Below, one piece after another: positions 40,072 to 64,000 of a stretch of 64,000 bases of DNA (its first letter is position 1; every line of letters starts with the position of its first letter). Under the pieces are notes generated by a model that saw nothing but the letters and a program-made list of their open reading frames with translations, was not told the DNA's origin and ran no database searches. Source of the stretch: an uncultured Candidatus Peribacteria bacterium (GTDB lineage Bacteria; Patescibacteriota; Gracilibacteria; Peribacterales; Peribacteraceae); NCBI GenBank assembly GCA_964554785.1, contig CAZKPW010000003.1, positions 98,243 through 162,242 of the forward strand, read 5' to 3'. Made by a program: the position numbers and the translations under genes.

Positions 40072-40073
40072 AG

Positions 40074-40145
40074 AACGCCGGACGGGGATCGAACCCGCGA
40101 CATCGTCATTGGCAATGACGCGCTCTACCACTGAGCTACTGGCGT
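40074..40145 (-). tRNA. tRNA-Gly-like (anticodon GCC), A1:U72, no encoded CCA
   Basis: ACGCCAG/CCGGCGT acceptor (one A-C mismatch), GCTC-AGTGGTA-GAGC, CGTCA-TTGCCAA-TGACG, GCGGG-TTCGATC-CCCGT. Confidence 0.7.
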
Positions 40146-40155
40146 AAAAAGGAAT

Positions 40156-40230
40156 TGGCGCCACTCGGATTCGAACCGAGAACCTTCTGCCTGGAAAGGT
40201 CAGATGCTCTGCCTATTGAGCTATGACACC
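40156..40230 (-). tRNA. Atypical tRNA with an expanded anticodon arm (possibly UUC/Glu); no encoded CCA
   Basis: GGTGTCA/TGGCGCC, GCTC-AATAGGCA-GAGC, CTCGG-TTCGAAT-CCGAG are canonical. The anticodon arm is TCTGAC-CTTTCCA-GGCAGA, 2 nt longer than standard. Confidence 0.55.
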
Positions 40231-40265
40231 GATCGGAAAGATCTTTCTATCCCGTGGGACAGAAG

Positions 40266-40339
<74 letters not shown>

Positions 40340-40356
40340 GCTCTTTTGAATGAAAA

Positions 40357-40430
40357 CTCGGGCGGAGGGATTCGAACCCACGAATTACCGATTAAGAAGC
40401 GGTCGCCTTTGGCCACCTGGCTACACCCGA
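40357..40430 (-). tRNA. tRNA-Lys-like (anticodon CUU), U1:A72, no encoded CCA
   Basis: TCGGGTG/CGCCCGA, 3-bp D stem, ACCGC-TTCTTAA-TCGGT (C31-U39 mismatch), GTGGG-TTCGAAT-CCCTC (one mismatch). Confidence 0.65.
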
Positions 40431-41646: not shown

Positions 41647-42633
41647 ATGCCTCTCACTTCTGCAGACGCGCACGCGGCATCCGATCTCCTCTCGAAAGCA
41701 AAACGTATTGCGTGCATCTGTCATCGGGGGCCGGATGGTGATGCAATCGGATCGGTCGTGGCGATTGCTCTTCTTCTCGAACAAAATTTCCCCGATGCGA
41801 AGGTGACCATACACTGCGTGGATCCGGTGCCGGAGACTTTTTTGTTTATTGAGGCAGCCAAACGCATTGCGGGTGCGCCGATTTTTCAGGAAGGGGACAG
41901 CGCGGTGATAGTGGATTGTGCGGAGGCAAAAATGACCGAGATGCATGTGACGCATCCGCAGCTTTTTGACGGAACTATTCCCACCGTGATGATTGATCAT
42001 CATCCGGGAAATCCGCGTTTTGGGACCGTGAATCTTCTCATTCCGGAAGCGGCATCGACGTGTGAAATCATTGTGGCTCTGGCAGATGCGCTCAACTGGC
42101 ATATCGATAACGATGTCGCAACGGCGCTTCTTACAGGCGTGTATACCGATACGGGAGGTCTCTTGCATAGCAATACCACACCGGGCGTGTATCGCGCCGT
42201 AGGTCGTTTATTGCGTGCCGGTGCGCGTCAGCAAATGATTGTGACTGCGGTCTTCCGGACGGCAAAATTGAGTACGCTTAAATTGTGGGGTCGAGTGCTC
42301 GAAAAGATCAGCGTGACGGAAGAGGGAGGGGCAATATCTGCAGTCACTCAAGGGGATTTCCGTGCGACGGGGGCGGATTATTCCGAACTTGCCGGTGCCA
42401 TCGATTACGTGAATGCAGTCCCGGGTATGCGCTTTTCCATGGTACTGTCCGAGCGTGACGGTAAAGTGAAAGGCAGCCTCCGCACTCTAAGGGATGACGT
42501 GGATGTGGCTGCAATGGCCGGAAACTTCAGCGGCGGCGGACACAAGAAGGCGGCGGGATTCGCGCTCAACGGAAAACTAAAACCGGAAGTACGCTGGAAG
42601 GTGATTGAGGAAGAGACCGAAGAGAAAAATTAA
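41647..42633 (+). CDS. DHH/DHHA1 phosphoesterase (NrnA-like)
   Basis: ICHRGPDGDAIGS.., MIDHHPGN, GGGHKKAAGF. The Met at 41647 is preferred because the longer ORF crosses the inverted repeat. Confidence 0.85.
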   Translation: MPLTSADAHAASDLLSKAKRIACICHRGPDGDAIGSVVAIALLLEQNFPDAKVTIHCVDPVPETFLFIEAAKRIAGAPIFQEGDSAVIVDCAEAKMTEMHVTHPQLFDGTIPTVMIDHHPGNPRFGTVNLLIPEAASTCEIIVALADALNWHIDNDVATALLTGVYTDTGGLLHSNTTPGVYRAVGRLLRAGARQQMIVTAVFRTAKLSTLKLWGRVLEKISVTEEGGAISAVTQGDFRATGADYSELAGAIDYVNAVPGMRFSMVLSERDGKVKGSLRTLRDDVDVAAMAGNFSGGGHKKAAGFALNGKLKPEVRWKVIEEETEEKN

Positions 42634-44633
42634 GCATTCTTCTCTGCATCCTTCTTTTGTTCCGCAGCTCTCTGCTGAGCGGCTACTTCGCTTGGCTTGG
42701 TGGTAATCAACTTGGATTCTTCGGGACTGGCGATGATTTCCACGGCCACATGTTTGTATCCAGCGAACAAGATTCCTTGTCCCACATCGGAGTTGAGGAG
42801 CACGTACTTTTCACCGTCCGTCAGGTAGAAGAGTTTCTGCAAACTATCCACGGTAGTCGGTGACTGTTTCATGAGAAGCTGCAACGAGGAGTTTGTGATG
42901 ATGGGTTTTCCAAAGGGGGACTCCACGAAGTCATCCACGTCCTGCGTGATGGTCGTGACACCCAAGTAATACTTACGGGCCCGCTTCACAATTCCATACA
43001 AGAAACGTGCCGAGTCTTCGTGCTGCATAAGGTTCCAGGCTTCATCAATCACGAGGATGCGCTTCTTCAGTTCCGTACGGATACGGTTCCAGAGGAAGTT
43101 CAATACCACGTAGATGGCAATGGGGCGGAGCTGTTCTTCAAGATCGCGGATCTGGAAGACAATCATCTGCTTATCCAATTCCACATTTGTCTTTTGATCG
43201 AACAACCCTGCGAAGCTTCCCGTCGTATACTTCTGCAGCACGCGACCCATGTTCTCGCCGCCATCGGTGGTCATAAGCACATCCACGAGCTGTCCGAGTG
43301 TGGGAGGCGTATTGGCGGTCAGGTCATCGGTGGTGAGGGTGATTCCATTGAGTGCGTAGGTATCCAAAATTGCTTTATCCAGCACACCGTCTTCTGTTGG
43401 TGTAATGGGGCCAAGCATCAATTTCAGAAGTCCGTGGATATTGATCACTGCGGAACGGAGTACTTCTCCGGGGGCCGCTTCATCGCCGCGGATGGCCTTG
43501 GGAAGGTCGAACGGGTTGATGCGATAGGGGCTTTGGATGGAGAGCGGAATGAAGGAACCACCTACCGCTTCACAGAGGTTGGTGTATTCGTTTTCCGGAT
43601 CGACCACCAGCACTTCGGTGCCAAGCATCAGGTAGCGCAGAAGTTCCAACTTCGCGGTGAAGGACTTACCTGCACCGGAGGTGGCGAAGATGTTGCTGTT
43701 GGCGTTCGGGAGATCGAAGCGATCGAACAGAACCAAGGAATCGTTGTGGCGGTTAATACCGTAGAGGATGCCGTGGTCGTCGGTTAAGTCGCTAGAGCTA
43801 AAGGGGAAGCTTGCCGCCAGCGGCGACGTATTCATGTTGCGATTGATCTCAATTTCATCCACACAAAGGGGAAGGGCGCTCGTCCACGCGTGTTCCATTT
43901 GGAACATGGCAGGCTTTGTAAGCACCAATTTTCCTCCAAGCAGAGATTCAAGATCGGTCTGGAGCTTCTTCAGATGCTCCTCGTCTTCGGCATACACCGT
44001 AATGTACATACCGAACTGGAAGAGCTTTTCCTGTCCGCGCGCAAGAAGATCGCGCAGTTCTTCCGCGTCTTGCAGAGCCGCTTCCAGGGTCGGATCGCGC
44101 ACAATTCCGCGCTGTTCCAACATACGGATAGAGGAGCGAAGTTCCGCAACTTTCTTGCGGAGCATTTTCATAATCGCTTTGTTTGAGCTGGGGTAAATGT
44201 ACTGCGCAATATCCATGGTGGCCGTCATATTAATGGTCTGTGCCAGCCAGTTTGGATAAATATAGTTCGGCCAGTTATAGGTGTAGAACGTCCGCGCGTA
44301 GAGGTCGTTCATAATAATATCTTTGTTGCGCACCTGCATGCCCGCAGGGGCAATGAGGTCGAGCATTTTCTGCAATCCTTCCTCGTAGCGTTTGACCGCT
44401 TCGCGTTCTTCGGGAGTCAGACTTTCGTCTTCTTTTTTATCCAAGATTTTTTTTGTTTGCTGATGAAGTCCCAGAAGTTCGTCAATAGCCTGCATGACCG
44501 GAGGCTCTTTTTTCATGCTCAAAACGGGAGCCGAAGGGATAGGTGTTGCAGCTGCAGCATCGGTACTTGGCTGAACATCATCGGGAAGGACGTTTTCAGG
44601 GAGGGGGCCGACTATGTTATTTGTGTCTGGCAT
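42630..44633 (-). CDS. VirB4/TraC-type type IV secretion ATPase
   Basis: 667 aa. LIAPAGMQV..DLYARTFYTYNWPNYIYPNWL..MDIAQYIYP, Walker A FATSGAGKSFTAK, Walker B RILVIDEAWNLM. Confidence 0.85.
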   Translation of the reverse strand: MPDTNNIVGPLPENVLPDDVQPSTDAAAATPIPSAPVLSMKKEPPVMQAIDELLGLHQQTKKILDKKEDESLTPEEREAVKRYEEGLQKMLDLIAPAGMQVRNKDIIMNDLYARTFYTYNWPNYIYPNWLAQTINMTATMDIAQYIYPSSNKAIMKMLRKKVAELRSSIRMLEQRGIVRDPTLEAALQDAEELRDLLARGQEKLFQFGMYITVYAEDEEHLKKLQTDLESLLGGKLVLTKPAMFQMEHAWTSALPLCVDEIEINRNMNTSPLAASFPFSSSDLTDDHGILYGINRHNDSLVLFDRFDLPNANSNIFATSGAGKSFTAKLELLRYLMLGTEVLVVDPENEYTNLCEAVGGSFIPLSIQSPYRINPFDLPKAIRGDEAAPGEVLRSAVINIHGLLKLMLGPITPTEDGVLDKAILDTYALNGITLTTDDLTANTPPTLGQLVDVLMTTDGGENMGRVLQKYTTGSFAGLFDQKTNVELDKQMIVFQIRDLEEQLRPIAIYVVLNFLWNRIRTELKKRILVIDEAWNLMQHEDSARFLYGIVKRARKYYLGVTTITQDVDDFVESPFGKPIITNSSLQLLMKQSPTTVDSLQKLFYLTDGEKYVLLNSDVGQGILFAGYKHVAVEIIASPEESKLITTKPSEVAAQQRAAEQKKDAEKNA

Positions 44634-56195: not shown

Positions 56196-56324
56196 GGAGG
56201 GGAGAATAGCAGAGGTGTGTCTATCCTTGGTATGATGATCGGGTGACCCAATGAAAATGTAAAAAAGGTGAGATGCACGGATGCCTCTCACCATTGCCTA
56301 ACCAAGACTAGTTAGGCGTGTCTG

Positions 56325-56570
56325 TTACCAGAAATGCCCGCCGATGATTCTATCCAGTGGATATCCGGGGTACCGTCCTCGGTTTCCAAGACACCAGATA
56401 CACCACCCTGTCATTGACGTAATGATTCCGAGTACAGGGGTACATATTTGCAGATACCAAGGAATCTTCAGTACTTCCTCTATCCACAGCATCCACTTTT
56501 CGGTGTACAGGGAGCTGAGTAGTAGGATCATCCATCCACCGAACAAAATCCAGAATCCAATTACTTCCAT
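56325..56570 (-). CDS. Small membrane protein
   Basis: 81 aa, two or three hydrophobic helices, Trp/Cys-rich. Confidence 0.4.
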   Translation of the reverse strand: MEVIGFWILFGGWMILLLSSLYTEKWMLWIEEVLKIPWYLQICTPVLGIITSMTGWCIWCLGNRGRYPGYPLDRIIGGHFW

Positions 56571-56877
56571 CGAGTTTCTCCTTCTTGGGCCATGTGTTTT
56601 GAATAAACAGACACCGACATTATTGTCAGAATATTATTCTAAACAACGGTTTAAGTGTCTTGTAAATTTTTTTGCTATTATATAAAATGACTGTTTACAC
56701 GCTAATGAAGTAGCGGAGGGTCTTTTATGATCACATCCGGCAGCGCAACTGAGCTTTGTAATGGTAACAAGGGATTCACAGGTTGTTATCTTCTGAAAGT
56801 GAGAAGGGAATTGCCATCATGGATGTCAAATAAATGTACACAGGAAGCAATAAAGATAGAATAGAGGTACTTACGTT

Positions 56878-57702
56878 ATGACTGATGTAGCACACCCCTT
56901 CACCTTTTCTGAAAGTCAGTTCAATGAGCTGTCTGGGGATCAGGTGTACGCAATAAAAAAATTGATTTATACGAAATCATTTCAAGAATTGGTATCAAAG
57001 AACCGAAGGGCTAACAATCTCCCCATAGAGCCTCCTACTGCATTTACGCCCCCTACTGCGGACGAAATTGAAGTGTCCGATCCTCAGATGTTCCGGCAGA
57101 TATCGGACATTCTTGGAAAATTGAAATGCTCCAGAAGGAAATTTCTTCCCTTCGCTTATATCTATACAAAATTCAACAAAATCATACCTCCTGCATATTT
57201 TCCACGTCCTTCAATGGATGAACTGAAACATGCTCATAGGGCAATCTCTGGGAAGCTGCAATTCCTGTCCAATGGTGACATTGGAAATTTGGATAAGAAA
57301 ATTCTGCTATCGGGTGTCGAAATTATGGGTGACCCCCTGTATGCGAACGATCAGGTGGCGGTCAGAGGGGGTAAGAGCCACGTTGCCTTACTACTTACAC
57401 CGCAGGCGACTCTGAAGAACATTGAGGATGTTTTTTCTGTTGTGAACGCATATCAACAAGTCATTCGCGGAAAACGGAAAAAGCGGGGCGAAAAAGATTT
57501 GGATAGGTTTTATGCAGTCTCGTGTCTTCAGCGAATGGGCGTGTCCTCTTTGAAACAGATTCGTCAAAAGCTCTTTGATAAATGGGAAGAGGAGAATCCT
57601 ACTGCAACTCAGGAGGAGGGGGACAGAGTTTTTGAGGCTGAATTTAGTGAAAATAACATCAATAACTGGATGAGGGGGGCAAAGAAGTTGGGCTTCATGT
57701 AA
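56878..57702 (+). CDS. Hypothetical protein (island)
   Basis: 274-aa ORF with a basic patch GKRKKRGEKD. No family recognised. Confidence 0.55.
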   Translation: MTDVAHPFTFSESQFNELSGDQVYAIKKLIYTKSFQELVSKNRRANNLPIEPPTAFTPPTADEIEVSDPQMFRQISDILGKLKCSRRKFLPFAYIYTKFNKIIPPAYFPRPSMDELKHAHRAISGKLQFLSNGDIGNLDKKILLSGVEIMGDPLYANDQVAVRGGKSHVALLLTPQATLKNIEDVFSVVNAYQQVIRGKRKKRGEKDLDRFYAVSCLQRMGVSSLKQIRQKLFDKWEEENPTATQEEGDRVFEAEFSENNINNWMRGAKKLGFM

Positions 57703-57740
57703 ACATAGACACCCCACTACATTTACCGCCATTTTTTGAG

Positions 57741-58013
57741 TTGCTCTGGAACTATCGTGACATGTCACGCGAAGAAGTCACGACACCCGTCACTAGGCGC
57801 ACTCCGAAAACGAAGACCATAGAGTCGGATAATCAAGTGCGTTGGAACTTCAAATACGCAGAGCAGTCGGAATCTACCGATAAAATACTGAGGGATGTTG
57901 CACAAGTGATCTACCGCTTCGGCGCAAGACACAGTTTTTTTGATGCTGAGAGCAAATCAGAGAAAGCATCTATTCCTCAACCATTTTTATCTACTCCCCC
58001 AATAAATCTATGA
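57741..58013 (+). CDS. Hypothetical protein (island)
   Basis: 90-aa ORF. Its stop overlaps the next start (ATGA). Confidence 0.4.
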   Translation: MLWNYRDMSREEVTTPVTRRTPKTKTIESDNQVRWNFKYAEQSESTDKILRDVAQVIYRFGARHSFFDAESKSEKASIPQPFLSTPPINL

Positions 58014-58324
58014 AAAGGCGGAAGAAATTCATGTTGGTCAAAGCTCTGAATTATGAAAATTTAGTCGTAAAAATTTATCAGTCACTGGATACCTTTGAAA
58101 CACAGGTGGGCTTTGAAACAGGGAGAAAAGAAATCTATCGGGTAAAAGTATCTGAGGAGGACGCAATAGGATTAGCGCAACTGTATTTGAAGGGGAGGAA
58201 TCATGGCTCATTCACTGGTCGAGGTCAGATGCTTCAGGAGCTGGAGCCGTCACTCAATGGAAATACATCCAATACGATGATTTTGCCGGAGCAATTTCAA
58301 CTGCCTTCCCCCCACACGAAATGA
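58010..58324 (+). CDS. Hypothetical protein (island)
   Basis: 104-aa ORF, translationally coupled on both sides (ATGA overlaps). Confidence 0.45.
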   Translation: MKRRKKFMLVKALNYENLVVKIYQSLDTFETQVGFETGRKEIYRVKVSEEDAIGLAQLYLKGRNHGSFTGRGQMLQELEPSLNGNTSNTMILPEQFQLPSPHTK

Positions 58325-58581
58325 AAATAAGTGAAATCCAGATCGTGCCTGTGAAGCCCCAAGATGGACTTATTGGATTCGCCTCATGTGTTCTGGATAA
58401 CTGCTACTTCATCGGTTCAATCGCAATTTATACACGCCTTGATGGAGGGCATCGCCTGGTCTATCCGAGCAAGAAGCTCGGAGAACGCAATATGCACTTC
58501 CATCATCCGATAAACCACGAGGCCAACAAAGCTATCGAGGATGCCGTACTCGAGCGCGTCCGTTCTATTTTCTCTACATAA
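58321..58581 (+). CDS. SpoVG-family nucleic-acid-binding protein
   Basis: MKISEIQIVPVKPQDGLIGFASCVLDNCYFIGSIAIYTRLDGGHRLVYPSKK..HFHHPINHEANKAIEDAVL parallels SpoVG (..MKAIASITLD..FVVHDIRVI..FVAMPSKR..DIAHPIN..). Confidence 0.75.
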   Translation: MKISEIQIVPVKPQDGLIGFASCVLDNCYFIGSIAIYTRLDGGHRLVYPSKKLGERNMHFHHPINHEANKAIEDAVLERVRSIFST

Positions 58582-58587
58582 ATTCTC

Positions 58588-59382
58588 TTGAATATGGAAA
58601 AAAGTGATGACCCATTCGTTCGGCTCCCGACCCCATTCCATGAGGCTCTGTGCAGGACTCGCATTGCTGGCGAACCGCGCATGATCCTTGATGCGATCAT
58701 TCGGAAGACTATTGGCTGGCAGAAAAAAGAGGACTGGATATCACTCTCACAATTTATGGAAATGACGGGCCTGCAAAAGAACGCAATTTGCCGTGCAATC
58801 GCACATCTTGAGCGCATGAAGATCATTCACAAAAAAGAGAACGGCAAGAAGTCTTTTTATTCAGTAGAACTCAAAACAGCATGTTGGATTCCATTACCAA
58901 AAAAGAGCACTGTTCCCCAAAAAGAGAAACATCATTCTCATAAAGGTGAATCATCATTCTCAAAAAAGGGACATACAAGAGATACAGATTCAAAAGAAAC
59001 TTCTTCAAAAGAAAATGTACTTGCTGTCGCAAGTACGTCTGTGCCGGAGCCTGAATTTATACATCCTTTGGAAATTGAATACAGGACGTTTCTGAAAGGG
59101 ATGCCGCTGATTTTGGGCCGCGAAAAAATGTTCACAAAAAAGGGATTCAAAAAATATGAGGCGCGACGCAAAAAATTTGATCTCGAGCGTCTGTGTCGAG
59201 CGTTTGAAAATCTACTCAGTGAACCTGGCCACTGGAAAATTACGCATAACGCTCACCGTCCTATGGAGTGGTGGCTCAAGTCTGATGAATACCTTGAGGA
59301 GCTTGAAAATTGCCATCTGAAAGGCAAGAACCCTGCGCCTGTCCAAGTTGGTTCCTTACATTCTACCCATGCCGCGATATGA
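58588..59382 (+). CDS. Replication initiator, phage lambda O N-terminal-domain-like
   Basis: FVRLPTPFHEALCRTRIAGEPRMILDAIIRKTIGWQKKEDWISLSQFMEMTGLQKNAICRAIAHLERMKII matches the Phage_rep_O wHTH pattern. Confidence 0.7.
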   Translation: MNMEKSDDPFVRLPTPFHEALCRTRIAGEPRMILDAIIRKTIGWQKKEDWISLSQFMEMTGLQKNAICRAIAHLERMKIIHKKENGKKSFYSVELKTACWIPLPKKSTVPQKEKHHSHKGESSFSKKGHTRDTDSKETSSKENVLAVASTSVPEPEFIHPLEIEYRTFLKGMPLILGREKMFTKKGFKKYEARRKKFDLERLCRAFENLLSEPGHWKITHNAHRPMEWWLKSDEYLEELENCHLKGKNPAPVQVGSLHSTHAAI

Positions 59383-60014
59383 AAGAGCCTGAACAAATTG
59401 GCAATGAATTGCACGTACTGACCTTGTTTGGTGATCGGTTTTTGGTCATCACGCGGGAACAGGTGACGCAGATAATGAAATTCCAGGATGAGGGGGTGAA
59501 GAAGTCTGTCAGTGTTGGCTTTGATGTCATTATGCTCAATCAAATATCGGGTATGCCTACATTGAAGACATATCGTGAGCAGATGAAAACGGCACTGGCG
59601 ATGAGGAGCCAACGTATGTGCAGGCGTTGCGGAGCCATTCTTGCTATGCAGGATCGATGCGCGTGCCAAGATAGCTCTCTGAATCCAGAGGAAAAGCCCA
59701 CACCGTATCTGGAGCGCTCGGCACAATCGAACCCCGCAGTCCGTAAGTATCTTGATACAGTTGGCTATAATCCTCTCCAGATAGCCGCCCCTTTGCCAGA
59801 GTTGCCGGATGACCCCGTGAAGGCGAAGGCATATCAACTTGCGAAGGCTCACATCATGCAAGGTACGCCGCGACCGGAGCTAAAGCCTGACCCGAACTGT
59901 ATAGAATGTAAGGGCGAAGGGAAGTACCCTCTCCAAGGCGTAATCGTGACATGCAACTGCATCGTAAATCTACGATTAGCAGAACGTGCAGCGAAGGTAC
60001 GCCGCGCACCATGA
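59379..60014 (+). CDS. Zn-ribbon protein (two CxxC..CxC knuckles), possible replication accessory
   Basis: ATGA coupling to the initiator gene. CRRCGAILAMQDRCAC and CIECKGEGKYPLQGVIVTCNC. Confidence 0.5.
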   Translation: MKEPEQIGNELHVLTLFGDRFLVITREQVTQIMKFQDEGVKKSVSVGFDVIMLNQISGMPTLKTYREQMKTALAMRSQRMCRRCGAILAMQDRCACQDSSLNPEEKPTPYLERSAQSNPAVRKYLDTVGYNPLQIAAPLPELPDDPVKAKAYQLAKAHIMQGTPRPELKPDPNCIECKGEGKYPLQGVIVTCNCIVNLRLAERAAKVRRAP

Positions 60015-60344
60015 ATAGGGAGTGGAAGATAAAGCGCAACGGTATATCGTCGGGGGATGGTAGTCAGATCATCTTGCGGCTCAAGTTTTCTCCCAGAACA
60101 GACGATCGTTGCTGGAACACATGTAATACTGGATGTAAGAGAAGGAATACTTCATATCGTGGGAAAGGCTGCAATGAATGTCATCTGCGTCAAATATAAA
60201 ATTTACGATCAGGACATCTCACTCGAATTTTTTGCTTATCTCACCAAATACCGCGATAGATTCGCTTCAGTACGTATCAACTGACGAAATGGTGTAGAGC
60301 ATACTTCACCTCTGCCGTACACTTGCCATGATTCCCCACCTCAC

Positions 60345-63248
60345 GTGTCGTACTTCGCAGATCACTACAAGGACATCGCATATCCAATCGGCACTAAAGA
60401 ACAGTCAGGACTGCATAACGCCCAGCTTGGCGCGATCCATGCGCTAATGTCTCATTTCACGTTGAACAAGGAACCAGCGATCATCACGCTCCCCACTGGG
60501 TCAGGGAAGACAGCGGTACTGATGATGTACTGCTACCTCGCACGTGCTCAGCGCGTCCTCATCCTGACTCCAGGAAAAATGGTCAGAGATCAGATTCGGG
60601 AGGATTTTGAGCAGCTTGCAACCCTGAAGGACATCGGTGTACTCGGTGAAGCGATACAGCCCCCGAGTATTGTTGAGGTAAAATCAAAAATCGACTCCAA
60701 GGAAAAATGGGAGGAGCTGAAAAAATTTGAAGTCGTAATCAGTACGCCAAACTGTGTGAGTCCAGAGTATGACGATATTCCAACACCCCCTCGTGATCTT
60801 TTTGATTTGGTGCTGGTGGATGAGGCGCACCATAGTCCCGCGAAGACATGGAATAAGATTCTCAGATGCTTCCCAAAGGCAAAGCGTGTTCTTTTCACGG
60901 CAACTCCGTTCAGGCGTGACCGCCGAGAGATTATCGGAAAATTCGTCTACACATATCCAGTCGCGCAGTCGTTCAAAGACGGTATCTTCGGCAAGATTCG
61001 CTTCATTCCGGTCAATGAGGATAATGAGCAGATCGACAATGACGTTGCTATCGCCAAGAAAGCGGAGGAAGTGCTGAATAAGGATCGTGCAAAGGGTTTG
61101 GATCACCTGCTGATTATCCGCACACTGACGCGAAATAAGGCTGATGATCTTGCAAAGCTCTACGCCAAGGAGACAAAGCTGAAACTTGATGTGATTCACT
61201 CCAATCATTCGGGGCGGAAGGTGAAAAAAGTCCTCGAACAGCTGAAGAAAAAGGAACTCGACGGCGTGATTTGTGTGAATATGCTCGGTGAGGGTTTCAA
61301 TCTCCCGCAGCTCAAAGTCGCCGCCATACATACGCCGCACAAGTCCCTTGAAGTGACGCTGCAATTCATCGGTCGATTTGCACGGACAAACGCTAAAAAT
61401 ATCGGGGAAGCAAAATTCCTCGCCGTTCCGAGCGAAATGGAGATCGAAGGAGAAAAACTGTTCCAAGAAGGCGCAGTGTGGCAGGAAGCGATCATTGGCC
61501 TCAGTCACTTCCGGCTAAAGGAGGAGCAGGAGACACGGGAGATGCTGCAACGATTTTCGCAACCCGTCATCTCAGAAGAAGACATAGCTGACATGTCTTT
61601 ATTCTCCCTTCGGCCTCGTCAGCATGTGAAAGTGTTTCATGTTCGTAGCGATGCCGATGTCATGCGGGAGCTGGAATTGAAGCCGCCGCTTGAAATTGTC
61701 TATCTCAACCCCAGCAAAGAAGTCTCTGCGCTCGTGATGGTGACGAGGGAGGTTTTGAAGCCGCGATGGACGAAGCTGGATCAGTTCGTGCGAGTCGAAT
61801 ATGACCTCTTCGTCGTTTATTACGATAAGCAAACAAAGCTGCTTTTTATCAATGCCTCACGGAGCAGTGATTCTGTGTATCGGGAGATTGTCGAACAGAT
61901 CGCGCCTTTTGCCTATCCTTTGGCTTCGAGCGAACTGAAGAAGGCGCTCATCGGCCTCAAACACCCGATCATTTTCAACCTCGGTTTGCGGAACAGGGTT
62001 CAAACACCCAATACTGAATCCTATCGCATAAAGGCAGGGCCACGCACGGACTCTGAACCAAGCGAAAGCCGCATGTTCAGTCTTGGTCACTTGTTCTGCA
62101 CTGCGGAAGAAGATGGGAAAAATGTGAATATCGGCTTCAGCGGTTCCTCGAAAATATGGAGTGCAACATCCTCGCAGATTCCTCGGCTTATCCGATGGTG
62201 TAGGAGTCTGGCGACGAAGATCAAGAGCGACGGCAAGGTGCAGACCAATTCGGGAATTGACTACATCACCACGGGTGAGCGCATCGACACGCTGCCAGAT
62301 GGCATTATCGCGGCAGATTGGGATAAGGACGCATACGATTACATGTTTCCCGTTGAGGCAACGATCAAATTACCTTCAGGACAGACGGAGAAGTGCCATA
62401 TCTCTGAACTTGATGTGAAAGTCGATCAATCAGAATCAGATGAAAGCAGAGTGCGGGTAAGCATCAGCAATGATCGCGTGAGTTACTCGTTCGATTATAC
62501 GCTCGATGGAAAAACCTATTTCCAACCCGTCGGATGTATCGGTAATGAGATCATGCTGAGTAAGGGGGCGGATGAACAGATTCCGTTGCTGGATTATCTC
62601 AATGGGAAACTGCTGCATTTTTATACTTCTGACCTATCACTCGTTCATGGCCATGAAATCCTACGGTTCCCCTCTGACCGCGCTATCTTTGATGACGGTC
62701 AGGTGCAGGCTATCGACTGGAGCGGTACGGACATCAAAAACGAAGTCAATGAAGCATCGTCCAGAGGTATTTCCATTCATCAGCATCTGCGTGAATCACT
62801 TTTAGCGGATTCGTATCCAGTGGTGATTTACGATCATGGGAATGGAGAAATTGCCGACTATGTTGCTCTCAAGAAAACAGATGAAGGTGTCCACGTTGAG
62901 CTGTATCACTGCAAAGGCTCAGGAGCAGAAAGTGCAGGAAGCCGTGTTGATGACATTTATGAAGTATGCGGACAGGCGATAAAATCAGTCGCCTTTGCCA
63001 ATCCGAAGAAATTGGAATCGAAAATGGGACTGCGTGGACGACGCAGCGGGAAATTCCTGCGCGGCACATTGGAAGAGTTCAGAACTCTGCTTGATGGAGG
63101 CCAGCGCGTTACGTTTGAGGTTATTCTGGTTCAGCCAGGCATCTCCAAAACGAAACTGAATGACAAGATGAAAGAAGTGTTTGCGGCAGTCGGTGACTAT
63201 GTTACGCAGGGTGGTTGTCAACGCCTGAAGGTGCTTGCTTCCGTCTGA
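60345..63248 (+). CDS. SF2 (DEAH) helicase fused to a large uncharacterised C-terminal region with a nuclease-like motif
   Basis: 967 aa, GTG start. LPTGSGKT, VLVDEAHH, LFTATPFR, QFIGRFAR in the first ~400 aa. The C-terminal region has IYDHGNGEIADYVAL..VHVELYHCKGSG. Confidence 0.9.
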   Translation: MSYFADHYKDIAYPIGTKEQSGLHNAQLGAIHALMSHFTLNKEPAIITLPTGSGKTAVLMMYCYLARAQRVLILTPGKMVRDQIREDFEQLATLKDIGVLGEAIQPPSIVEVKSKIDSKEKWEELKKFEVVISTPNCVSPEYDDIPTPPRDLFDLVLVDEAHHSPAKTWNKILRCFPKAKRVLFTATPFRRDRREIIGKFVYTYPVAQSFKDGIFGKIRFIPVNEDNEQIDNDVAIAKKAEEVLNKDRAKGLDHLLIIRTLTRNKADDLAKLYAKETKLKLDVIHSNHSGRKVKKVLEQLKKKELDGVICVNMLGEGFNLPQLKVAAIHTPHKSLEVTLQFIGRFARTNAKNIGEAKFLAVPSEMEIEGEKLFQEGAVWQEAIIGLSHFRLKEEQETREMLQRFSQPVISEEDIADMSLFSLRPRQHVKVFHVRSDADVMRELELKPPLEIVYLNPSKEVSALVMVTREVLKPRWTKLDQFVRVEYDLFVVYYDKQTKLLFINASRSSDSVYREIVEQIAPFAYPLASSELKKALIGLKHPIIFNLGLRNRVQTPNTESYRIKAGPRTDSEPSESRMFSLGHLFCTAEEDGKNVNIGFSGSSKIWSATSSQIPRLIRWCRSLATKIKSDGKVQTNSGIDYITTGERIDTLPDGIIAADWDKDAYDYMFPVEATIKLPSGQTEKCHISELDVKVDQSESDESRVRVSISNDRVSYSFDYTLDGKTYFQPVGCIGNEIMLSKGADEQIPLLDYLNGKLLHFYTSDLSLVHGHEILRFPSDRAIFDDGQVQAIDWSGTDIKNEVNEASSRGISIHQHLRESLLADSYPVVIYDHGNGEIADYVALKKTDEGVHVELYHCKGSGAESAGSRVDDIYEVCGQAIKSVAFANPKKLESKMGLRGRRSGKFLRGTLEEFRTLLDGGQRVTFEVILVQPGISKTKLNDKMKEVFAAVGDYVTQGGCQRLKVLASV

Positions 63249-63370
63249 ACATCCCCCTACCCTCCAATTCCTCTGTGTGGCCGCCAACTGCCCTATAACG
63301 GTTTTTCGGAGGATTAGGCTCCCTTACTCCTCCCGCGGATTATCAAGCGCTATAAACGATTTCTTGAAGC

Positions 63371-64000
63371 TCAGGCATGTGGATGATATTGCTCTCCAGA
63401 TTGATGGGTGGGATCGACATGTACGGTCGCCAGTGACAGATAGTTCAGATGATGGAATAGCTCGTGCTGCACGTCACTTGCGATGTCATGTCCCTGTTCC
63501 ACCGATAAAGAAGGCTCCACGGCGATATTCATCTCGATATGCAGTTTGTGTCCTATCCATCGCGCCCGTACGTCGCTTACATCTTGCACACCGGAAACAT
63601 GGCTGACTGCGTGACTGATCTCGTCCAAAATCTCCGGCTCCACGCCATCGAGGGCGCGGAGGAAGACCGCCTTCACCGATTGCCAGACAATCACAAGAAT
63701 TGCCACGGTGATCCCCAACCCTATGATAGGGTCAGCCAACGGAAATCCCAGCCAGACACCGAGAGCACCGAAAAGCACCGCAAGACTTGTCCAACCATCC
63801 GTCCGCGCATGGTAGCCATCAGCTATAAGGGCGGCGCTGTTGATCTCCTTTCCTACTCTAATGCGGAATATAGCTACGACTTCGTTCCCAATGAATCCGA
63901 CAATAGAGGCAGCGACAACCGCCCAGAGAAAGGTGACCTGCTGTGGGTGCAATAAACGATCAATTGACGTGTAACCGGCAACAATCGCGCTAAAGAGGAT
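63371..64000 (-). CDS. Cation diffusion facilitator (CDF) transporter, partial; 5' end outside the window
   Basis: ..NSAALIADGYHARTDGWTS.. (TM5 HxxxD) plus a C-terminal cytoplasmic domain ..VSDVRARWIGHKLHIEMNIAV... The frame stays open to the window edge. Confidence 0.85.
   Translation of the reverse strand: MLFSAIVAGYTSIDRLLHPQQVTFLWAVVAASIVGFIGNEVVAIFRIRVGKEINSAALIADGYHARTDGWTSLAVLFGALGVWLGFPLADPIIGLGITVAILVIVWQSVKAVFLRALDGVEPEILDEISHAVSHVSGVQDVSDVRARWIGHKLHIEMNIAVEPSLSVEQGHDIASDVQHELFHHLNYLSLATVHVDPTHQSGEQYHPHA

Follow-up and report, generated by a model that had tools for sequence, protein, structure and literature searches.

A DEAH helicase with a predicted FokI-like nuclease domain as a candidate stand-alone defence protein in a Candidatus Peribacteria genome

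Helicase-nucleases, among them Cas3, Hachiman, Hna, Nhi, DruE and HmaA, are a recurrent means by which invader DNA is recognised and destroyed, and each example solved so far has a different trigger. The Hna protein of Sinorhizobium meliloti is a polypeptide of 845 aa in which DinG/XPD-like helicase domains (HEL1 and HEL2) with a reduced Arch domain are followed by a nuclease that comes directly after HEL2 (PMC13381803), and HamA, the nuclease of the two-gene Hachiman system, is nearest to a type IIS enzyme (PMC12278908). Fusions of restriction endonucleases (REases) with superfamily 2 (SF2) helicases have been noted generically as auxiliary effectors of bacteriophage exclusion (BREX) systems (PMC12839542), and genes embedded in BREX loci are usually defence systems (10.1101/2024.01.29.577857). 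A different strand of work has shown that IML3/CENP-L and the lambda exclusion protein RexA have the fold of RdgC, and that RdgC, RexA and IML3 bind DNA non-specifically, as ring- or horseshoe-shaped dimers, by way of an extended beta-sheet (PMC11077077). The subject of this report is a gene in which features of these systems appear to meet. It lies near the end of a 64,000-nucleotide stretch of DNA, here called the window, from an uncultured Candidatus Peribacteria bacterium (assembly GCA_964554785.1, contig CAZKPW010000003.1, positions 98,243 to 162,242 of the forward strand), and its product is probably a stand-alone DNA translocase-endonuclease, most likely an innate defence protein that acts in conflicts between genetic elements.

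The list of open reading frames (ORFs) gives a frame with a GTG start that encodes 967 aa, stop codon included in its coordinates. The GTG start was preferred because the family consensus MxYFxxxY agrees with the N-terminus MSYFADHY of this protein and because a second, independent gene call (P0061) is the identical 967-aa protein. The NCBI gene call (P0001) has 907 aa and starts at an internal ATG, with the loss of the first 60 residues (window 60345-60524) and of Walker A. Sequence comparison and structural modelling together predict a DEAH SF2 motor, a basic middle module, an acidic segment and a C-terminal nuclease domain, in that order. Every motif string on which the original prediction had based its complete SF2 set is present, LPTGSGKT and QFIGRFAR at the residues listed in the table, VLVDEAHH at residues 156-163 and LFTATPFR at 183-190; the two C-terminal strings that it had singled out were also located, VVIYDHGNGEIADYVAL at residues 826-842 and VHVELYHCKGSG at 849-860.

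The motor half of the protein is readily recognised in sequence searches. Pfam matches comprise ResIII (residues 23-190, E 1.6e-24), SWI2_SNF2 (PF18766, residues 27-245, E 2.3e-12), Helicase_C (residues 254-348, E 1.8e-10) and DEAD, and a T1R_D3-like match was found in 29 of 51 family members. Across the aligned family, Q27 and the motifs PTGSGKT, DEAHH, TATP and QFxGRxxR are invariant or nearly so. The nearest PDB sequences are a type I R subunit (3h1t_A, E 5e-9), SauUSI (7clg_A, E 7e-8), for which the alignment is confined to the motor (7clg_A residues 239-547), and RadD, while the best description among PHROGs is a DNA helicase (phrog_16, E 1.9e-40). The PADLOC models mREase_IV (type IV REase) and PbeA match the motor weakly in all 51 members. 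In NCBIfam, the motor alone gave matches, all of them sub-threshold, to the EcoAI R subunit, RadD, UvrB and HsdR, and it reached none of the curated cut-offs of a named family. The group of motors to which type I R subunits, SauUSI and RadD belong includes DEAH translocases of double-stranded DNA.

Beyond the motor, sequence searches are nearly silent. Past residue ~390 of the 967-aa protein there are no Pfam matches, and a C-terminal Pfam match is likewise absent from all 51 family members. The last 567-577 aa matched no PDB sequence, whether by single-sequence phmmer or by profile hmmsearch at E<=10, and the tail as compared with Pfam, NCBIfam, PHROGs and PADLOC gave nothing beyond a partial match to the core of the PADLOC candidate PDC-S71. 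The ~560 aa that the original prediction described as unrecognised are thus without a Pfam, NCBIfam or PDB sequence match, as it had said, but they resolve into two recognisable folds when modelled.

The first of these folds is that of the nuclease. An AlphaFold2 model of residues 791-967, built with the family alignment, has a predicted local distance difference test score (pLDDT) of 96.4 and a predicted template modelling score (pTM) of 0.92, with the secondary-structure order H21-31, E36-39, E49-55, E58-66, H78-94 ... E132-144. The top three Foldseek matches in the PDB are FokI chains (2fok_A, 2fok_B and 1fok_A; prob 0.99-1.00, TMq 0.45-0.47, E 1.7e-3), followed at lower probability by LmuA, SfsA, MspJI, BsmI, Cap4 and Shedu, all of which are PD-(D/E)xK nucleases, and among predicted viral structures (BFVD) the C-terminal domain of HamA was matched with prob 0.72. 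As modelled, residues 796-967 have the PD-(D/E)xK nuclease fold, with the FokI cleavage domain nearest; these ~170 aa were modelled confidently as a nuclease (FokI prob 1.00) and not as a known non-nuclease domain.

Seven residues of this domain, D830, E835, D838, H855, K857, D870 and Q877, are invariant in 55-68 aligned homologues, D870 and Q877 being located on the helix that follows the active-site stretch. Because D838 lies immediately ahead of strand 2 in the model and strand 3 ends with H855-C-K857, the motif is read as D...HxK. This revises the catalytic assignment proposed earlier from the sequence, in which a strand ending in Asp was paired with a strand carrying Glu...Lys: the PD-(D/E)xK fold and the invariance of the acid and the Lys (55-68 homologues) bear out a nuclease core, but its residues are D838...H855-x-K857, and E852, the Glu in VHVELYHCK, is variable among homologues (E/Q/G/S/R/A). 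In enzymes of the Mrr/MspJI and Cfr10I types, Q or S occupies the first (D/E)xK position and the acid is supplied from elsewhere; candidate suppliers in the present protein are E835, D830, D870 and E873. The PDC-S71 match covers residues 818-891 (E 9.4e-5) and recurs in 8 of 51 members; only positions 418-486 of the 589-position model align, short of its full length, and by sequence the match appears to reflect a shared nuclease core only.

The second fold is that of the middle region. The AlphaFold2 model of residues 391-967, again built with the family alignment, has a pLDDT of 91.9, and its best Foldseek matches in BFVD are phage RdgC-family proteins (E 2e-5 to 1e-3, prob 1.00, 290-380 columns, TMt 0.30-0.47). 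These matches carry the names 'exonuclease' or 'recombination-associated protein'; because a query with E. coli RdgC retrieves phage genes so annotated, including one from Providencia phage Kokobel1, to which one of the matches belongs, the names were taken to denote RdgC homologues. In the PDB, human CENP-L (prob 0.72, ~300 columns) was the only credible non-nuclease match of this model and FokI the only other credible one, the remainder being mostly low-probability beta-propeller and TbpB noise. The 967-aa protein has no Pfam RdgC match and, since there is no sequence signal to RdgC, the link is structural only. On the strength of the models, the middle region probably has an RdgC/RexA/IML3-like DNA-binding fold. 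Its conserved half, residues 415-640, has an isoelectric point of 9.5 (family median 8.7), contains the motifs ESYRI, RGH and GYSSxSKVWS, and retains six basic residues that are invariant or near-invariant (K429, K533, R549, R561, K603 and K625) in addition to an invariant set consisting of H427, W475, G547, Y560, G565, G581, H582, G597, S599, W605 and W618. The segment that follows, residues 641-795, is well modelled and carries a net charge of -15 (-13 at the family median); of the four protein segments it is the least conserved (0.38). It might act as a sensor, or as an autoinhibitory plug or DNA mimic.

The gene belongs to a large family. When a profile of the C-terminal 577 aa was compared with 1.84 billion representatives of 50%-identity clusters, 2082 matched at E<=1e-3 and 889 at E<=1e-30, so that the family comprises at least 889 strong clusters, almost all of ~970 aa and of like layout, and the sequence is therefore not a chance ORF. 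In those hits that are full-length proteins, the aligned part again ran from residue ~390 to the end, and a search with the tail alone returned 60 clusters, nearly all of them 960-990 aa long with the same N-terminal helicase domains; the few that are named are called 'DEAD/DEAH box helicase' or 'superfamily II DNA or RNA helicase'. In a pattern-limited scan of one genome per species, 305 of 185,579 species genomes (~0.16%) carried relatives, spanning Bacillota, Bacteroidota, Acidobacteriota, Planctomycetota, Pseudomonadota, Actinomycetota, Chloroflexota and one archaeal metagenome-assembled genome. Relatives also occur on 107 plasmids, 61 of which are conjugative, where they are annotated solely as DEAD/DEAH box helicase, and in two 'phage' records. 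In Parapedobacter and a few other genomes (L047 59-1807; L048 10061-11671; L045, L052 and L080), the intact ORF consists of the C-terminal 430-660 aa alone. These ORFs, which retain the middle region and the nuclease, could be split genes, pseudogenes or helicase-less variants.

To look for partner genes, the five genes on each side of the homologue were clustered at 94 loci, which fall into 64 non-redundant groups. No gene was conserved as a partner across these groups, and the commonest neighbour family, an integrase, appeared in only 6 of them. Stand-alone status was assigned for this reason, and the earlier statement that the gene has neither a methyltransferase nor another partner holds, in that none is conserved across these loci. 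The 107 immediate neighbours at 63 loci include LmuB (three), GajA, RloB/AAA_15, TIR, OLD-TOPRIM and Eco57I (two each), as well as mad2, PglZ, BrxL and integrases. The nearest relative, with 74% identity, adjoins a PDDEXK_1 gene and a type III restriction-modification system. A Brevibacillus copy is flanked by a BamHI system, a type IIG enzyme, a recombinase and an HNH protein; at a further locus the homologue comes after a Shedu gene and has a ScoMcrA-like HNH protein as another neighbour; a copy on a Bradyrhizobium plasmid lies among AbiE, SIR2 and UvrD genes; clostridial copies are preceded by an integrase and followed by an SMC-like ATPase; and one homologue is inserted on its own, accompanied by a TIR fragment. 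In a Rubrobacteraceae chromosome, the homologue (L005 660-7030, same place as L017) comes directly after a pair of genes for an SNF2 helicase and a 1177-aa Eco57I/MmeI-type methylase. This pair has a Hma/BREX-related layout, and the homologue there stands between PIN/MazE and Phd toxin-antitoxin genes.

A human-gut homologue (P0057, with 61 cluster members on more than 55 contigs) is embedded in a type 1 BREX operon, where it separates pglZ from brxL and runs in the same orientation. At this locus (L006-L009, 1-14930), the homologue is followed by a DUF6414 and AAA-ATPase gene pair, which may be another embedded system. The homologues are found in variable regions, defence islands and plasmids and not in conserved repair operons, a pattern that is as expected of a stand-alone, horizontally mobile defence gene. 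With respect to the single-gene defence module first proposed, the single-gene part and the defence-gene neighbours were borne out, and the defence function itself would follow from them by association.

In the window, the helicase-nuclease gene closes a block of same-strand genes (56878-63248) that is flanked by oppositely oriented host genes and contains small unknown ORFs, a SpoVG-like ORF and a phage O-like replication initiator with internal iterons, in agreement with its earlier description as the terminal cargo of a replication-module island. Coordinates are collected in the table.

Features of the helicase-nuclease gene and of the replication module upstream of it, with window coordinates
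Feature	Coordinates	Strand	Basis or remark
Complete helicase-nuclease gene	60345..63248	+	ORF list, family N-terminus consensus, identical gene call P0061
SF2 DEAH motor core (RecA1 + RecA2), residues 23-348	60411..61388	+	Pfam, PDB sequence and PHROG matches
Motif I / Walker A, LPTGSGKT, residues 49-56	60489..60512	+	P50, T51, G52, G54, K55 and T56 at least 90% conserved
Motif II, DEAH, residues 159-162	60819..60830	+	D159, E160, A161, H162 and H163 invariant in 55 sequences
Motif VI, QFIGRFAR, residues 340-347	61362..61385	+	Q340, F341, G343, R344 and R347 invariant
Basic conserved half of middle region, residues ~415-640	61587..62264	+	Probable RexA/RdgC/IML3-like DNA-binding fold
Acidic, fastest-evolving, beta-rich segment, residues ~641-795	62265..62729	+	Net charge, lowest conservation
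PD-(D/E)xK nuclease domain (predicted), FokI/HamA-like, residues 796-967	62730..63245	+	AlphaFold model, Foldseek, PADLOC
Putative active-site stretch D830-K857 (YDHGNGEIAD...LYHCK)	62832..62915	+	Invariant residues in 55-68 sequences
Phage O-like replication initiator	58588..59382	+	Pfam Phage_rep_O, E 6.7e-20; PHROG 'replication initiation O-like', E 7e-25
Iteron-like direct repeats TTCACAAAAAAGAGA and variants, 4-5 copies, within initiator gene	58824..59145	+	Repeat families D1, D2 and D4

The repeats probably mark the origin of a small replicon that has been integrated or has decayed. Their position inside the initiator gene is a layout like that of the lambda ori inside gene O, and the SpoVG-like ORF (58321-58581; PF04026, E 3.8e-9) immediately precedes the initiator gene. 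In a search for the boundaries of the island over 56200-63450, neither a tRNA nor an integrase nor flanking att-like repeats were found, and the island has no methyltransferase; promoter and terminator scans were at chance level. Elsewhere, the window encodes RecQ, ClpB, S1 and a VirB4-like conjugal-transfer ATPase (42633-44633, minus strand; CD1110 family, E 7e-102, above the curated cut-off), and a cluster of four tRNAs (40073-40430) is found near the gene for this ATPase. The host is close to Peregrinibacteria, a small-genome group of the candidate phyla radiation (CPR): the arginyl-tRNA synthetase of the window has 61-66% identity to proteins assigned to Candidatus Peregrinibacteria or Peribacteraceae. 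This supports the ultra-small-genome bacterium that the original prediction had surmised.

If the protein is a defence enzyme, a sequence of events can be proposed in which the basic RdgC-like module loads on or clasps DNA, probably as a dimer, the DEAH motor moves along or remodels the DNA by ATP hydrolysis, and paired FokI-like domains cut the DNA of an invading phage or plasmid. FokI cleavage domains must pair to make a double-strand break. For the sparing of self DNA, by analogy with Hachiman and Hna, DNA ends, replication structures or a phage protein could well serve as the trigger; dependence on modified DNA, as in a type IV enzyme embedded in BREX, is somewhat less likely, and some other mode takes up the remaining probability. 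The BREX embedding of the gut homologue would also fit the type IV-like reading; no known modified-base reader was found in the protein, and we lean slightly towards triggering by ends, structures or a phage protein. A more specific proposal, offered tentatively, is that the gene is the founding example, from a CPR bacterium, of a widespread single-gene immune system whose HsdR-like motor is linked to its FokI-like nuclease by a DNA clasp of the RexA/RdgC type and by an acidic, rapidly evolving segment that acts as a sensor or plug. If correct, it would represent a new way of coupling DNA encirclement to cleavage and the first enzymatic use of the RdgC fold, tied to the old puzzle of RexA exclusion. 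The DNA-wrapping fold of RdgC, RexA and IML3 has no earlier report inside an enzyme, so a validated function would provide a mechanistic handle on it. Validation would also add a new defence family and a defence gene for Peregrinibacteria and other CPR genomes, in which, as the original prediction remarked, few defence systems have been characterised.

Several observations weigh against the main reading, that of a stand-alone defence enzyme. The defence role would be a case of guilt by association, and the neighbour tallies behind it are uncontrolled counts; some copies, such as that at L098, stand alone among housekeeping genes, and the gene of the window lies directly downstream of a replication module, which permits a role in replication or recombination. 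The RdgC-like assignment is founded on predicted phage structures and on the CENP-L match with prob 0.72; solved RdgC (2OWL/2OWY) is absent from the top 50 structural matches in the PDB, and the profile of the C-terminal alignment, when compared by hhalign with the sequence of E. coli RdgC, gave no match (prob 0.08). The FokI match is moderate (best TMq 0.47, at the E-value given above), and His at the first (D/E)xK position is an unusual variant, so that nuclease activity, as judged from the model, is not guaranteed. Finally, PADLOC 2.0.0 dates from 2023, and newer catalogues could already name the family.

The alternative with the most in its favour, though an unlikely one, is that the protein is a helicase-nuclease of DNA repair or recombination that processes forks or ends, or modulates RecA through its RdgC-like domain, in the service of the host or of a mobile element. 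RdgC is a recombination-associated protein, the motor has weak matches to RadD, UvrB, XPB and Hef, and the copies among housekeeping genes would be at home in such a role. However, the matches to repair families fall far below curated cut-offs (for RadD, 51.6 bits against 720), the family is sporadic in distribution and often plasmid-borne, its neighbours are defence genes instead of repair operons, and RecQ is already encoded in the window. A replicative or accessory helicase of the small integrated element, partnering the O-like initiator and the iterons upstream, is highly unlikely, even though the gene shares its strand and tight spacing with the island genes at 56878-60284, the initiator gene among them. 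No replication family recurs beside the homologues, the commonest neighbour being the integrase at 6 of 64 loci; the setting of the 74%-identical relative, described above, is one of nuclease and restriction genes instead; and replicative helicases are generally hexameric DnaB, MCM or superfamily 3 proteins and not nuclease-fused DEAH SF2 enzymes.

The resemblance of the motor to type I R subunits (EcoAI model, E 2.3e-14; T1R_D3-like; 3h1t), together with the frequency of restriction-modification genes among the neighbours, raises the question whether the protein could be an R subunit, orphaned or diverged, that derives from a type I, ISP or III system and requires a methyltransferase or specificity partner encoded elsewhere. 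This is very unlikely, as the scores are far from those of true R subunits (30.6 bits against a cut-off of 284.55 for the HsdR model TIGR00348, and 52.8 against 550 for EcoAI), the nuclease is C-terminal and not N-terminal, a methyltransferase or specificity gene is neither conserved near the homologues nor present in the window island, and the restriction-modification systems that neighbour the homologues have R subunits of their own. Membership of the Hna abortive-infection family, to which the original prediction had likened the gene, is extremely unlikely: both proteins start with an SF2 helicase and end in a PD-(D/E)xK nuclease within a single chain, as had been pointed out, but Hna is shorter and DinG/XPD-like, with its nuclease directly after HEL2, whereas the motor here is of the ResIII/Helicase_C/HsdR-like kind and is followed by a middle region of ~380 extra residues that form separate domains. 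No PADLOC model named Hna was matched in release 2.0.0, which may lack such a model. The reading of the protein as a stand-alone translocase-endonuclease in innate defence accordingly remains the one preferred.

Comparison with described systems places the protein among several of them without making it a member of any. Like Hna, the protein is a lone polypeptide that begins with an SF2 ATPase and ends in a PD-(D/E)xK nuclease, and both are distributed sporadically but broadly. Hna is a 3'-5' exonuclease of single-stranded DNA and has neither an RdgC-like nor an acidic middle region; the protein described here pairs a DEAH motor of the HsdR/SauUSI type with a FokI-like domain that carries D...HxK. 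DinG-type Pfam families are absent from the window protein and from the 25 listed of the 39 families that the 51 members match. Hna membership was rejected because the DinG/XPD-like helicase and a nuclease following HEL2 are lacking, the C-terminal PD-(D/E)xK nuclease being present. Hachiman resembles the present protein in coupling a helicase to a type IIS/FokI-like PD-(D/E)xK effector, the C-terminal domain of HamA being among the structural matches. Its two components are encoded by separate genes: HamB is Ski2-like and has a helical bundle at its N-terminus, and the nuclease is a DUF1837 protein with D-ExK. In the present protein, the two parts form one chain in the reverse order, and the motif is D...HxK. 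The Pfam HamA family matched neither the window protein nor the 51 members, and HamB models matched only residues ~23-160 (motifs I-II), weakly (E 1e-6 or worse). Hachiman membership was rejected on the grounds of the single polypeptide, the lack of a conserved neighbour and the confinement of the HamB match.

SauUSI and HsdR have the nearest DEAH translocase core by sequence and are likewise large single proteins of nuclease and motor found in defence islands. SauUSI differs in its N-terminal PLD nuclease and its C-terminal DUF3427 modified-base reader; Pfam matches to PLD and DUF3427 were found neither in the window protein nor in the 51 members, and assignment to the SauUSI type was rejected because the motor alone aligns. 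HsdR differs in its N-terminal nuclease and in needing HsdM and HsdS, and was rejected on its sub-cut-off scores, the C-terminal position of the nuclease and the lack of a conserved methyltransferase or specificity gene. HmaA, the BR-type Snf2 helicase-REases and the BREX auxiliary effectors also combine a helicase with an active C-terminal PD-(D/E)xK nuclease in or beside methylation-based defence loci, but HmaA and the BR-type proteins have Swi2/Snf2 motors with Tudor and inactive REase domains and work with a methylase and an ATPase, partners that are not found here. RdgC, RexA and the IML3-CHL4 (CENP-L/N) proteins provide the best structural matches for the middle region, and in RexA their fold already serves a phage-exclusion protein; in these cases the fold forms a free-standing DNA-binding protein, whereas here, with no sequence similarity, it would be internal to an enzyme. 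No model in PADLOC 2.0.0 covers the family, and no description of this architecture turned up in the literature searched. The family, as yet without a name, is a candidate for single-gene defence and falls within the well-populated class of helicase-nuclease systems.

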